Notes: generated by a model not told the origin, from the letters alone. Positions 2,447 to 6,708 are shown, counted from the stretch's first letter. The stretch: DNA of 59,932 nucleotides from Granulicella sp. (GCA_027339965.1 DAHWNL010000086.1:1-59932); one strand, 5' to 3'. Numbers and translations: made by a program.

Positions 2447-3565
2447 TTAGCAGTTGTAATTGATCTCTTCTTCTTCTTCGACCCCGTAGCGACGTAGCAG
2501 ATTGGGCAGGTTCTGGCTGAATGCCGCGCGCGGCATCACCACATCGCAACCCGCCTCGACGGCCTTGGCCTTCAGATCGCCCTGCAGGTGGGAGAGGAAA
2601 CCGATGATGGAGGCTGACTTCTTGAGCTTGGCCTTGAGCTTTGGAATCAGCGTCAGCGGCTTGGCGTTGGCATTGTTTAGATCGAAGACGATCAGCGCCG
2701 GCTTGTCCTTGTCTCCTTCGGTCAGCGCGGCTACGCTCTCCTTTTCGTTCTTCACGAACTCCACCTTCACGCCCAGCTTCTTGGCCGTCTCCTGGATCTT
2801 GGCCTGGAAAAACAGCTCTTCAATGAAGAAATAGATGTGCGTCTGGGCTCCCTCCGGGATTGGAATCGGCCGCGGCATCGAGCGGTCGATCGGCTGCGAA
2901 TCGCCAGTGTGTCGATGACCGCTGCGGCGCGTCTGTCCCGGCATCTGGATGGTGGACGGCGGGGTATCGCCAAACTCGCCCGCCTCACGATAGCTGTGAT
3001 CCATGGGGCCCACAAACCCACGCTCGCGCTGCTGGCTACCGCCGTTCTTTCCCTTGCGCTTGAAGCCGCCAATCTGGTTGCCGAAGTTGTCCGGACGATA
3101 GCCATTCCCTCCGCCGTAGGCGTTGGGCGAAGCGGCCTCGGCGCGCAAGTCATTGCCCGGATTCTCACCCCTGCCGGCGCTGCTCGTGCGGCGCTCGCGA
3201 TCCCGGAACTTCTTCTTCCAGCGTTTGCCTGCGGGCTGCTGGCCGGCAGCCGGCAGCTTTCGCGCTCCCTGTGTCCCAGCCGCCGCCAGCGCCAGGCTCT
3301 CGCCCTCCATCACCAGCGGAGCCAAAGGCAGAGCTGCATCACCCTCAGCGCCGGTCACGGCGGGGCCGTCACCGGCGATCTTGTTCTTGCGTTTGCGCCT
3401 CCGCCGCCGGCTGCTCTTGCTCTGGCCCATTCCCGGACCTGGCTGGCCTCCGTCGCTGGCGTTTATCGGCTCCTGTGAGCCGCACTCCTGATTGCCGTCG
3501 TCTCTGCTGCTGTAATCCTCTGCCGCGTCGTACGACGAGAAAGCTGCTATGTTCTGCTCTGACAT
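2447..3565 (-). CDS. Arg/Gly-rich disordered N-terminus fused to an atypical response-regulator receiver domain
   Basis: Start moved to MSEQNIAA (AAGGGG SD upstream). C-terminal ~120 aa has receiver-like layout (IVFDLN, GFLSH, AGCDVVMPR). N-terminal part is low-complexity, with SRRRRRKRK and KRWKKKFRDRERR. Confidence 0.8.
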   Translation of the reverse strand: MSEQNIAAFSSYDAAEDYSSRDDGNQECGSQEPINASDGGQPGPGMGQSKSSRRRRRKRKNKIAGDGPAVTGAEGDAALPLAPLVMEGESLALAAAGTQGARKLPAAGQQPAGKRWKKKFRDRERRTSSAGRGENPGNDLRAEAASPNAYGGGNGYRPDNFGNQIGGFKRKGKNGGSQQRERGFVGPMDHSYREAGEFGDTPPSTIQMPGQTRRSGHRHTGDSQPIDRSMPRPIPIPEGAQTHIYFFIEELFFQAKIQETAKKLGVKVEFVKNEKESVAALTEGDKDKPALIVFDLNNANAKPLTLIPKLKAKLKKSASIIGFLSHLQGDLKAKAVEAGCDVVMPRAAFSQNLPNLLRRYGVEEEEEINYNC

Positions 3566-3836
3566 GGTGCTTTGAATTCCCCTTGCGACTGAAGGCTTGA
3601 GACTCCTTGAACATGCGTCGGTGCCTGGTCCATCGCGACCCAACCGAAACCAGTTCGAAGGCGTGTCAATCGTCCTCTCTCAAGCGTTGACTTGTTGCTC
3701 CATCTGTGTCGATCTTCGGCGCCCTTCGGCGCCCATAGCCGATTGCGGTCCGCCCGCCGCACCCGGCAAACGGATCATGGCATCTTATGGACTTTCTCCA
3801 CTTCGTCTTCCCTGGAAAAACCAGGAAGCCCGTCTT

Positions 3837-3881
3837 TGATTCTTGGATCCCTGATTCTTGGATCCCCGATTCTTGGATCCC
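3837..3881. repeat. 15-bp tandem repeat x3 (YGATTCTTGGATCCC)
   Basis: Units at 3837-3851, 3852-3866 and 3867-3881. Confidence 0.95.
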
Positions 3882-4053
3882 CGACCCCCTCGGCCGAGAT
3901 CCTACTGGCGTTCGTCCGCTCCCAATCTATCGCCGTCCACCGCAATCGGGCATGTCCGCGCGCTCAGCAGATCAACCTCTTTCTTTCGTCTTTGCTGCGT
4001 TCATACGCTAGCGACTCTACCCTGTGCTCTTCGTCCACCCGGCCGGCTCTTTA

Positions 4054-4079
4054 TGGTTCCCTGCTCTGGTTCCCTGCTC
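4054..4079. repeat. 13-bp tandem repeat x2 (TGGTTCCCTGCTC)
   Basis: Units at 4054-4066 and 4067-4079. Confidence 0.9.
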
Positions 4080-4452
4080 TGGGATGCTAAGAATGGATTG
4101 GCGATCACTCACGATTCTGGGCTCGAAGTGGATGGCGTCCCCAAAGATCGTATCCATCCCGCGGAATCTTGCCTGTTCCAAGCTTCCCTCACATCGCCTT
4201 CGTGGCGCGATCTCCGCGACAGACTCTGGGTTCGCCCTGAATCATGATGTAGCGGTGACGGGCTACGCTCTTGGCACCCCTTGTTGATCGCTTCGTGGTA
4301 GTTCGGTATCTACAGAATCCGCGTTGGAGACCCAAGCTCGTGATCGGTTCCTGCTGAAACCCCCGCTTACTTGCTTTGGAGAGCCCACCGGGCATTGAAC
4401 CCACCGGACGGCTCAAAGTGCGCAAGTGACCCTTGGCCTGCGGAACACCTTG

Positions 4453-4481
4453 ATTCTACGCCGGAGAGAAGCTAAGCGCAA
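4453..4481 (-). promoter_or_regulatory. sigma70-type promoter TTGCGC-N17-TAGAAT
   Basis: -35 at 4481-4476, 17-nt spacer, -10 at 4458-4453; predicted +1 near G4446. Confidence 0.7.
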
Positions 4482-4592
4482 CTCCGTTTTGCACGGATGG
4501 TATTCGGATCAAGTTTGTCATTGCATAGACATCGGGCCACCTCCCCTCCCCGGAAGATGGCCCTAGCCCCTAATAGCCAGTCACTAGCCTCC

Positions 4593-4813
4593 CAAAGAGC
4601 CTCCCGAGGACGAAAGTCCCTGAAGAGACCTTGGCTTGACGGTAACCTCCCTCTTCGGGGAGGTTGAATCCCGCAAATCTCCGCCTCAATCCCTTTGCAG
4701 ATCTCGGGGCGTCATCGATTTAAGCGGCTTTCCCGCTTCAAGCAATAAGGAGATTCGAGCTCTGATCTGGTCTGCAACTTCGCACCCTGGACCACGCACC
4801 CACATCCCTACAG
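4593..4813 (-). ncRNA. putative sigma54-dependent structured small RNA (~215 nt; may extend to ~4534)
   Basis: Downstream of a -24/-12 motif. Helices at 4722-4727/4733-4738, 4644-4651/4658-4665 and 4675-4682/4749-4756; terminal G-U-rich hairpin 4598-4630 followed by CUUU. Confidence 0.45.
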
Positions 4814-4823
4814 CGTGAGAAGC

Positions 4824-4840
4824 TGCAATCCTGATACCAA
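4824..4840 (-). promoter_or_regulatory. sigma54 (-24/-12) promoter motif TTGGTATCAGGATTGCA
   Basis: Exact GG-N10-GC spacing with TTGCA at -12; A/T-tract-rich DNA upstream (4845-4940). Confidence 0.6.
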
Positions 4841-5301
4841 ACCGGAAACAACGATTTTTGCCCAAAATCCCAAATTTCGGCCGAATCAGGCCACCAAAAA
4901 TCGGAGTTTGAGTCGTCTCATCTCCGTTTTTCAGAAGAATCTTCGATCTGCCTCCCGGAGGATGCCGCAACCCGATTGGAGATCTGGGAGACCCAACGGC
5001 CCTCGGAAGGTTCGCCGCGAAGCGTCACGCCAGAACGCCAGCGGCAATCCACCCAGCCCAGCAGTCTATGTAGCCACGGACCGATCGTCGCGATGGCTCT
5101 GCTTCCAATTGGCTGAACTCCCGCCCGGCAGAATCTTCGCCTAATCTTCCTGGACACGCCCGGAGACACGCCTGATTTCTTCGGCCAACGAATCGATCCT
5201 CTCACCCTCTCTGGCGACCAAACAACCCGAGCAAGGCGAGGAAACGGGCGGCAGCAAGATTTTGAGCCGGCCAGTGGATTCCATAGAATGAGAGGGGCAA
5301 G

Positions 5302-6708
5302 ATGACCAAGCCAGTGCGTCCCGACCCATATCCACATCAACGTCCACCTCAGCGCCCCCTCTTTCACTCTCCCTGGGTGATCTTCTGGGTGGCTTTCGCA
5401 GTGCGGGTGGCCGTAATCCTGATAGGGCATACCTACCGGATTCGGACTATCGGGGAAAACTTCGACTTTGGTTTTGAGGCGGGCCGGATTGCGCGCTCGC
5501 TGGTAACCGGGCACGGCTACGGGAACCCGTTCAATGGAATGTCGGGACCCACCGCCATGGAACCCCCGCTCTATCCGCTTCTCCTGGCCGCCGCCTTCAA
5601 GTTGTTCGGCGTCTACACTCACGCTGCGGCGATAGCCGTCATGGTAGCCGACAGCGCGTTCTCCGCGCTGGTGGTTCCCGCCATCTATGAGATCGCGCAG
5701 CGCTGCTTTGATGCGCGCGGCATCGCGCGAAGGCGCTCCACCGCAGCGGCGCCGGTGGCGCTGTGGTCTGCCTGGGTGTGGGCCGTCTATCCCCCGGCGC
5801 TGCAGTACGCCGTGCATTGGATCTGGGAGATGTCGCTCACAGTCTGTTTGTTTAGCTGGGCTCTGGTGGTCACGCTGCGGCTACGCGGGGTGGGAGAGAG
5901 CCAACCGACCGGGACAGGGGAAGGATGTAATGGAACAGTCTCGCGGAACGCTCCTCTGCTGTGGTTTGTGCTGGGGGTGTTGTGGGGACTCGTGGCGCTC
6001 TCCAACTCCTCGCTGCTGCTCTGCCTACCCGCCTCCATGGTCTGGGTACTCTGGCCCCGGCTTCGAGCCGGCGGGCTGCGCCGTTCGGCCTTCTGGCAGA
6101 GGGCTATTGCCGGAGCCGCGTTGACCACCCTTGCGTTCTGCGCGGTGCTGGCCCCATGGGTGGTCAGAAATGAGCGTGTGATGCACGCCTTCATCCCCGC
6201 GCGCAGCAACTTTGGGCTGGAGTTGTACAACTCCACATTGCCGTCTTATGACGCATTCCCGTGGGGTGCCGTGCTGCCGCTATGGCCGGGAGACCCCGTC
6301 TTCCAGCAATATGTGCGCATGGGCGAGATCAAGTTCTCCCGCATGCGCCAGCGGCAAGCCATCGCCAACATCCGTTCAGAGCCGGGCCAGATCGCCCGTT
6401 GGACGTTGGATCGGTTTCTGTTCTTCTGGGAGGGTATGCCCCACGCGGCCAACGGCCGGCCCATGCTGGAATTTCTGCGTCAGTTCAGCTATTCCTTTAT
6501 CAGCGCCTGCGGCTTGCTCGGGCTGGCGCTCATGCTGCGCCGGAGGCTCGAAGGAGCGGGGTTGTTTGCCCTGGTCTTCGTGTTGGCTCCCGTGGTCTAT
6601 TACTTTGTCACCATGCAGTCCCGTTTTCGCCATCCGATCGAGCCGCTGATCGCAATTCTCGGCGTGTATCTGTTCCGCTCCACGGAGAAGTCAGAAAGGC
6701 GAGCCTGA
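5302..6708 (+). CDS. GT-C fold membrane glycosyltransferase (ArnT/PMT-like)
   Basis: Polytopic protein; E..RIARSL..GHGY, PTA.EPPLYP, PWVVRN and RFRHPIEP motifs; GAGGGG SD. Confidence 0.8.
   Translation: MTKPVRPDPYPHQRPPQRPLFHSPWVIFWVAFAVRVAVILIGHTYRIRTIGENFDFGFEAGRIARSLVTGHGYGNPFNGMSGPTAMEPPLYPLLLAAAFKLFGVYTHAAAIAVMVADSAFSALVVPAIYEIAQRCFDARGIARRRSTAAAPVALWSAWVWAVYPPALQYAVHWIWEMSLTVCLFSWALVVTLRLRGVGESQPTGTGEGCNGTVSRNAPLLWFVLGVLWGLVALSNSSLLLCLPASMVWVLWPRLRAGGLRRSAFWQRAIAGAALTTLAFCAVLAPWVVRNERVMHAFIPARSNFGLELYNSTLPSYDAFPWGAVLPLWPGDPVFQQYVRMGEIKFSRMRQRQAIANIRSEPGQIARWTLDRFLFFWEGMPHAANGRPMLEFLRQFSYSFISACGLLGLALMLRRRLEGAGLFALVFVLAPVVYYFVTMQSRFRHPIEPLIAILGVYLFRSTEKSERRA

Follow-up and report, generated by a model that had tools for sequence, protein, structure and literature searches.

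A 1.74-kb gap without genes (positions 3566-5301) in a 59,932-nucleotide (nt) stretch of DNA from Granulicella sp. (GCA_027339965.1 DAHWNL010000086.1:1-59932; hereafter the window, meaning the whole stretch analysed, counted from its first letter) houses the locus of a small RNA (sRNA) encoded by the minus strand behind a conserved sigma-54 promoter. We hold with high confidence that this is a stand-alone, sigma-54-dependent sRNA, and we tentatively favour, as a reading that falls somewhat short of probable, that it acts in trans by presenting an invariant module, GGGAGG joined to a hairpin (hairpin A), to a protein partner. The gap is flanked by the minus-strand gene P0003 (2447-3565) and the plus-strand membrane-protein gene P0001 (5302-6708), and the sRNA stretch is present once in its own genome. 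An earlier note on this DNA had proposed a sigma-54-controlled sRNA here, possibly a sponge for CsrA, or else an alternative upstream start producing a ~1.25-kb RNA. The first proposal is well supported by the conserved promoter, the activator-like sites, the presence of rpoN and about eight enhancer-binding proteins, discrete RNA contigs beginning a short way below the promoter, and classical terminators in other genera; the evidence below speaks against the other two.

A conserved sigma-54 promoter precedes the RNA

The exact -24/-12 motif of the sigma-54 class that had been read at 4840-4824 on the minus strand (TTGGTATCAGGATTGCA) holds up on comparison with related genomes. The word TGGTATCAGGATTGCA at 4839-4824 fits a -24 GG and a -12 GC with 10-nt spacing and a TGGCAC-N5-TTGCW-like consensus, and a strict form of the pattern stands on the sense strand upstream of hairpin A in 39 of 40 unique genus loci and in 24 of 31 loci from other genera, as compared with one antisense match in each set and 3, 0, 0 and 1 matches in control windows. 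With the looser pattern GG-N8-YTGC all loci score (40/40 and 31/31, against 3-8 in controls). Aligned within the genus, the promoter reads TGG(C/T)R-N5-ATTGC(A/T) in every locus with enough DNA.

Upstream of it lies a pair of words resembling activator sites, TTCTTCTGAAAAACGGAG and CTCCGATTTTTGGTGG, which begin 96 and 66 nt ahead of the -24 TGG. When 40 unique genus loci are aligned, the pair takes the form TCTTCCG-AAAAA-CGGAG, about 20 nt, TCCGR-TTTTTGG, and related words occupy the same place in other genera. An enhancer-binding protein would bind this pair at 4939-4891 and, in the proposed scheme, activate the sigma-54 polymerase on some signal. The pair has no second occurrence in its own genome, so no regulon can be drawn from it. 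The A/T tracts reported earlier upstream of the promoter were found at 4900-4845. Among loci of other genera, 11 of 24 carry an exact IHF-consensus word, YAANNNNTTGAWW, at a constant distance of 30 nt upstream of the -24 TGG (5 of 1060 shuffles); it occurs in none of 29 genus loci, which have A/T tracts there instead.

The trans-acting machinery is encoded in the same genome: rpoN is represented by one RpoN DNA-binding-domain match (196 bits), and PF00158 gives 13 matches, eight of them at 133-239 bits, pointing to about eight enhancer-binding proteins. No gene for such a protein was seen adjoining the sRNA in the flanks of its relatives. At G000:C17:43574-45886, the rpoN DNA-binding-domain match is followed about 1.4 kb later by a RapZ-like gene, an arrangement that we take to be that of the proteobacterial rpoN cluster.

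Two conserved hairpins place the RNA on the minus strand

The transcript is predicted to run from about 4813 to about 4522, past a second hairpin (hairpin B; Table 1). Throughout the genus the order is promoter element, a variable body of 150-260 nt, UUUNGGAGG with hairpin A (GGCCAGUGACUGGCC), and hairpin B. The hallmark of the family is UUUNGGGAGG followed by the hairpin GGCCAGUGAYUGGCC; the copy in the window differs from the 18-mer GGAGGCCAGTGAYTGGCC at two positions (GGCU.. and ..GGCU), both of which yield G-U pairs. Hairpin A is paired in all 41 genus sequences. Hairpin B is likewise kept in 41/41, with 99.6% of cells paired, and its exact word is present as one copy in 28 of 32 genus genomes among the matches listed; of the remaining listed genomes, two have it with one mismatch and two (54-59% complete) have 2-mismatch matches only. 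An outer helix extends hairpin B, its 3' strand reading GUCUUU or GGCUUU in relatives, and in the genus it joins AGGGG to a following CUUU, which makes a terminator-like but weak structure. In 33 of 40 genus loci a hairpin with a run of at least three U residues stands 63-70 nt past hairpin A, and in two more it stands 84 and 100 nt past it (35/40).

The strand, about which the earlier note had raised a doubt, is settled by these hairpins. Over the 18 pairs of hairpins A and B in 41 unique sequences, 735 of 737 cells pair in the minus sense, 78 of them as G-U; in the plus sense the same 78 become A-C mismatches and only 657 of 737 cells pair. Sliding the partners lowers pairing from 99.7% to 35-59%. 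Transcription from the plus strand, or a region that regulates the divergent genes purely at the level of DNA, would be in keeping with plus-strand loops that read GAAA and UUCG, and the RNA contigs described below come without strand information. Such an explanation deserves almost no credence, given the A-C mismatches, the minus orientation of promoter and terminators (63 of 71 loci, as compared with 2 of 71 in the antisense direction), and an upstream neighbour that varies between clades while the element persists.

In the variable body, the earlier note had listed helices at 4722-4738, 4644-4665 and 4598-4630, along with hairpin B at 4534-4563, and all four recur when the six closest sequences are folded to a consensus. 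The hairpin at 4722-4738 is specific to the window's clade, that at 4644-4665 has U-G pairs in relatives, which the plus strand would turn into C-A mismatches, and that at 4598-4630 has changed on both sides at three pairs in the same consensus fold. A further helix, 4749-4756/4675-4682, appears in the single-sequence fold, but in the consensus its 3' strand has a different though similar partner, about 35 nt further down the RNA. The crossing 7-base-pair (bp) pairing 4771-4777/4695-4701 is present in the window, but three of five relatives (L004, L005, L006) lack the complementarity, and judged from these sequences it is probably due to chance. The CUUU remarked on after 4598-4630 is present, and is actually the U-rich lead-in to the invariant hairpin at 4589-4575, which had gone unlisted.

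Table 1. Positions of the sRNA, its control elements and the neighbouring context in the window
Feature	Position	Strand	Basis
P0003, arginine-rich receiver-like protein, 372 amino acids	2447..3565	minus	context; constant downstream neighbour
Sigma-70-like promoter TTGCGC-N17-TAGAAT with conserved leader start GUUCC (context, outside the sRNA)	4442..4481	minus	conservation
Predicted sRNA, ~290 nt	4522..4813	minus	start placed 12 nt below the -12 C; end placed after extended hairpin B (both predicted)
Outer helix AGGGGC (4571-4566) / GUCUAU (4530-4525), extending hairpin B	4525..4571	minus	consensus folds
Hairpin B, 12-bp stem, loop GGGGAG	4534..4563	minus	invariant in genus; terminator position of other genera
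Family hallmark: U-rich lead-in, GGGAGG (4593-4588), hairpin A GGCUAGUGACUGGCU (4589-4575)	4575..4597	minus	conservation
G-U-rich hairpin preceding the invariant module	4598..4630	minus	consensus fold
Hairpin AACCUCCC-CGAAGA-GGGAGGUU	4644..4665	minus	single-sequence and consensus folds
Hairpin AAGCGG-GAAAG-CCGCUU	4722..4738	minus	single-sequence fold and 6-sequence consensus fold
Sigma-54 -24/-12 element TTGGTATCAGGATTGCA	4824..4840	minus	sequence pattern and conservation
A/T-tract spacer between activator-like sites and promoter	4845..4890	minus	sequence
Activator-site-like word pair TTCTTCTGAAAAACGGAG (4939-4922) and CTCCGATTTTTGGTGG (4906-4891)	4891..4939	minus	conservation

Among the genomes searched, the family is limited to Acidobacteriaceae

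A search with the entire gap matched 20 of 24 genomes of the same genus and none of 16 from a sister family, and the segment common to all matching genus genomes was window 4534-4596. BLAST with the core found the full module in the genus only, plus two partial matches; the loci of these two have the same layout, with a classical terminator where hairpin B would be. The 18-mer GGAGGCCAGTGAYTGGCC, allowing at most one mismatch, extended the family: of the Acidobacteriaceae sampled, 73 of 401 genomes and 28 of 142 genera have it (one control match), nearly always as a single copy per genome. In a phylum-wide sample it was found in 14 of 33 genomes of the family and in 1 of 367 outside it, with six control matches. 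In the genomes searched the sRNA family is restricted to Acidobacteriaceae, matches outside being at the control rate. Across the 28 genera hairpin A is invariant in its loop and in its two arms, apart from stem changes that all give G-U pairs. Other genera carry a hairpin with a U-run, a classical terminator, 49-103 nt past hairpin A in 23 of 31 loci, and the 5' end of their RNA reads GCCAG(C/A)GACG, a repeat of the 5' arm and loop of hairpin A.

A scan of a genome collection with a 17-mer was too short a probe, only 20 of 119 stretches being real among the matches listed; the organism labels among those listed were Acidobacteriaceae and Bryocella sp. Two bins labelled Verrucomicrobiae and Acetobacteraceae (L037, L048) carry a typical genus-type sRNA with its promoter, and their contigs are probably mis-binned Acidobacteriaceae DNA.

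The family is absent from the Rfam catalogue. Rfam 15 gave for the window only a tRNA elsewhere at the gathering threshold, two chance-level matches in 3400-5500 at E<=10, none in eight genus loci, and one sub-threshold match, isrD (30 bits, cut-off 37), in 20 loci of other genera at E<=0.1. The families without a match include GlmY (RF00128) and GlmZ (RF00083), to which we return below.

Environmental RNA and terminators bound a discrete transcript

In a metatranscriptome run from mine drainage (X1), a 217-nt contig lies over its whole length, at 100% identity and a depth of 12.5, on 4589-4805, and the rest of 3400-5500 is uncovered. At 80% likeness the same run yields two further contigs (229 and 187 nt), which at the ends that depart from the window resemble the copies of the relatives L003 and L005; they begin at 4575 and 4568, and the longer one reaches about 4803. 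The contigs of these three species are confined to the RNA body, and none crosses into the leader of P0003. On the 5' side they stop 8-10 nt short of the predicted start at 4813, a limit compatible with a start there. Two further runs of the same study (X2, X3) contained nothing of the stretch, which is not evidence of absence. Taken together, this is a discrete sRNA with both ends bounded, the ends themselves standing at predicted positions.

These contigs bear on the reading that the sigma-54 promoter is an alternative promoter of P0003, the apparent sRNA being the front portion of a ~1.25-kb leader, or a stable product of its processing or attenuation, with a role in cis. Its attraction lies in position: all 44 genus loci of sufficient length, and 25 of 30 loci from other genera, have a P0003 homologue downstream in the same orientation, the hairpin B of the genus has a short U-run, and a tool scan finds no terminator in the window. 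We consider it unlikely, given the strong classical terminators after hairpin A in other genera, the restriction of the contigs to the sRNA body, never the leader or gene, and a separate conserved sigma-70-like promoter (4481-4453) between the sRNA and P0003. The earlier note had seen no protein gene downstream, a statement to be qualified: P0003 starts at 3565, about 960 nt downstream, behind a promoter of its own. With a terminator-position hairpin and this promoter intervening, and no contig entering the leader, the proposed ~1.25-kb RNA is disfavoured as well. The pattern TTGCAY-N17-TAnnnT followed by GTTCC is kept in 22 of 41 unique genus loci; a stricter consensus scan over 4300-5000 left the promoter unscored, and the claim rests on conservation. 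A P0003-type gene also keeps its own promoter and leader in five genera without the sRNA. One locus, L164 (genome G054, marked unpublished), is counted in the tally of 44 and possibly also in the counts for the IHF word, the strict promoter and terminator and the sigma-70-like promoter, each of which its removal would shift by at most one.

P0003 and the neighbouring genes

P0003 is of an atypical receiver-like kind, in which an arginine run (5-8 residues) and low-complexity sequence rich in Q, G and N are followed by the conserved word FVGPMDHSYR and then by a receiver-like domain. The protein is labelled in some sources as 'response regulator' or 'CheY-like', and a Pfam search of P0003 gave no match. 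Its translation-start region is conserved at the nucleotide level, and in the homologues of other genera the ribosome site lies within the loop of a 4-bp hairpin, GCAC-CAGGAA-GUGC. The leader of P0003 runs for about 880 nt down to 3566, and its start is kept even in genera without the sRNA. Within this leader GATTCTTGGATCCC is repeated three times in tandem at 3838-3885 (plus strand). At locus L204 (G127:C3), a run of GGGGCTAGGG-type repeats at about 915-1030, followed by an inverted copy, lies upstream of its P0003 homologue.

On the other side the neighbour varies by clade, being P0001 in the window's clade and a secreted-protein gene in most of the genus. In other genera it is an open reading frame (ORF) whose end carries a CxxC zinc-finger-like word, and which we assume to be mutM-like. 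A conserved block of about 120 nt (GGCTGCCGCACCTTCCTCCGCCCGTTGG ... TCGCGGGCGCGAGAGGACAGTCGGCTGA), without an Rfam match, lies roughly 150-330 nt upstream of the sigma-54 promoter in L007, L009, L013, L153 and other genus loci, before the divergent secreted-protein gene (about 250 amino acids). It is missing from the window's clade, where P0001 takes its place.

A protein partner or a base-pairing target

How the sRNA acts is less certain than that it exists. We lean, with limited confidence, towards protein binding rather than base pairing. The working part would be the 22-nt invariant module (4597-4575), read as a folded hairpin that a protein binds, so that the RNA would serve as a decoy or adaptor like GlmY and not as a multi-site sponge. 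Recognition of the folded hairpin by a protein is suggested because neither the stem (G-U changes aside) nor the loop varies across 28 genera, because searches of its own genome and the P0003 leader turned up no complementary partner, and because synteny with the gene for an arginine-rich protein is fixed. Candidate binders are P0003, with its arginine-rich stretch, the RapZ-like protein encoded beside rpoN, and Hfq.

Base pairing is nearly as likely, and we regard it as a serious possibility of somewhat lower standing. Here a stand-alone sigma-54-dependent sRNA would act by Hfq-assisted pairing, with the G-rich, Shine-Dalgarno-like UUUNGGGAGG before hairpin A as its seed and C-rich targets, such as CCUCCC elements masking ribosome-binding sites, whose translation would be altered; hairpin A and the terminator would be a mere Hfq-binding module. 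Most trans-encoded sRNAs act by pairing, and a U-rich stretch, a hairpin and a U-tailed terminator form the usual layout of Hfq-dependent sRNAs. Other genera show just these elements, the terminator with its U tail, and an Hfq gene is present. Set against this, a 6-bp G+C hairpin encloses most of the invariant stretch, and conservation extends to its two arms and its loop, more than a seed needs; the P0003 leader has no conserved complementary site, and genome scans stay at chance level.

The searches behind the last two points covered the P0003 leader and the sRNA's own genome. CCUCCC-type words in the leader or start of P0003 are not conserved, and duplexes of the GGGAGG region with the leader have energies no better than those of 50 shuffled seeds in most of 33 loci, at sites that scatter. 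Scans of the genome for GCCUCCC-type sites before start codons and for complementary partners of 9-10 nt returned chance-level matches only. One candidate target, C50:15184, was dropped: its hairpin lies beside an ORF whose translation resembles an antisense read. A chance 16-nt match to the sRNA core falls in the leader of a 995-amino-acid ORF (G000:C34:57600-57900, minus strand), a leader that we take to be cobalamin-riboswitch-like from its motif.

Two kinds of sponge were weighed. That the sRNA titrates a second small RNA with a mirror-image core is very improbable. A C-rich seed of the anti-Shine-Dalgarno type would find a fitting partner in the G-rich loop of hairpin B (GGGGAGGGGAGG), yet no second locus resembling hairpin A or B was found on either strand of its own genome (up to 3 substitutions in 19-20-mers and 6 in a 30-mer). 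A blastn-short search there for a complement or mirror-image RNA gave only matches of 13-17 nt at chance level, in coding ORFs or a riboswitch-like leader. The single exact copy of the hairpin B word in 28 of 32 genus genomes among the matches listed also speaks against it, extra 2-mismatch matches being at about the control rate. A CsrB/RsmZ-type sponge titrating CsrA through many GGA motifs, as the earlier note had suggested, is close to excluded. The window's RNA does hold five GGAGG words, and GGA is mildly enriched in the genus (7.75 against 5.57 in shuffles), but PF02599 has 0 matches in a 98.86%-complete genome in which controls were detected. In other genera, moreover, GGAGG occurs 1.29 times per RNA, essentially at the invariant site only, and GGA 5.13 times against 4.64 in shuffles; there is one invariant GGAGG family-wide and no array.

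A more specific form of protein binding would make the sRNA and P0003 a dedicated signalling pair, in which the arginine-rich N-terminus binds the invariant hairpin GGCCAGUGAYUGGCC with GGGAGG before it, as lambda N binds boxB. Sigma-54 would then make the RNA on a signal, and one partner would switch or sequester the other. We think this improbable; if true, a response-regulator-like protein would be under sRNA control, besides or instead of phosphorylation. The idea that the sRNA is an obligatory partner of P0003 was weakened by the motif-negative genera described next.

Several observations weigh against the favoured picture of a sigma-54-dependent sRNA that presents its module to a protein. 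A P0003-type protein with an arginine block and its own leader, and with no sRNA upstream, is present in all five motif-negative genera examined, and hence the protein does not need the sRNA. The Hfq gene and the U-rich, hairpin and terminator layout fit a base-pairing sRNA too, and the mode of action is read from sequence. With regard to the promoter, the pattern TGGYAY-N5-TTGCW matches once in the 59.9-kb window against 0.16 expected, but at least one match also arises in 14 of 100 shuffles, so the motif alone is not significant; the promoter draws its significance from being conserved, not from that single match. The DNA contig with the sRNA locus has no gene for an enhancer-binding protein. 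At the 3' end, a tool scan of 4300-5000 finds no canonical terminator in the window, where the U-run is broken (GUCUAU), and the case for a terminator draws on conservation. All three RNA contigs break at the invariant core (4568-4589), where sequence becomes identical between species, because the assembly graph must branch there; being assembled, they carry neither strand nor true ends, and weak read-through would be compatible with them. Finally, compensatory changes are seen at one pair only in hairpins A and B, because the module hardly varies.

Comparison with known systems

Full-text literature searches returned no study of an sRNA, or of any RNA dependent on sigma-54, in Acidobacteriaceae, a family whose phylum is among the most abundant bacteria of soil. 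The sRNA family makes up a complete regulatory unit of activator sites, sigma-54 promoter, RNA, terminator and fixed neighbour, found in at least 28 genera and present in environmental RNA. The identity of the activator would reveal the signal that the sRNA answers, and that of the partner of hairpin A would show how post-transcriptional control works in Acidobacteria; were P0003 that partner, an unusual link between two-component-type proteins and sRNAs would follow.

CsrB, RsmY and RsmZ carry G-rich GGA motifs in or beside hairpin loops. The sRNA described here has such motifs too, but its genome has no CsrA gene and its family no shared repeat array. The boxB hairpin of phage lambda is bound by the arginine-rich motif of the N protein, and the resemblance, an analogy only, lies in a short invariant hairpin with a neighbouring gene for a protein with an arginine run. 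P0003, unlike N, is a receiver-like cellular protein that is also found in genera without the sRNA, and its binding to the hairpin is conjectural.

CrcZ and CrcY are RpoN/CbrB-dependent and have arrays of repeated A-rich motifs. PMC5113210 and PMC6292655 present them, in Pseudomonas and Azotobacter, as sRNAs antagonising Hfq and Crc that were studied in an RpoN context. By contrast, the family here has one invariant site and no repeat array outside the genus. The Qrr RNAs of Vibrio are about 100 nt long, often occur in several copies, adjoin luxO and pair with the help of Hfq through a conserved single-stranded seed. According to PMC10162802, their transcription needs sigma-54 and an enhancer-binding protein. 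A sigma-54-type promoter of a regulatory sRNA is the shared feature, read here from the DNA; the sRNA of Granulicella differs in its length (~200-290 nt), its single copy, the lack of an activator gene nearby, and a conserved part that is a closed hairpin.

The reading of a protein-bound module takes its model from GlmY, which with GlmZ forms a pair in Enterobacteriaceae. Gopel et al. 2010 (PMC3045617) state that E. coli glmY requires IHF, and GlmY is portrayed in PMC7073468 and PMC4152352 as a protein decoy for RapZ. The sRNA here is unlike them in matching no Rfam sequence or structure, in belonging to another phylum, in being one copy rather than a homologous pair, in its different upstream site words, and in having no activator gene adjoining it. 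It is like them in being a conserved hairpin RNA that ends in a terminator, as GlmY and GlmZ do, and its own genome, too, has a RapZ-like gene beside rpoN.

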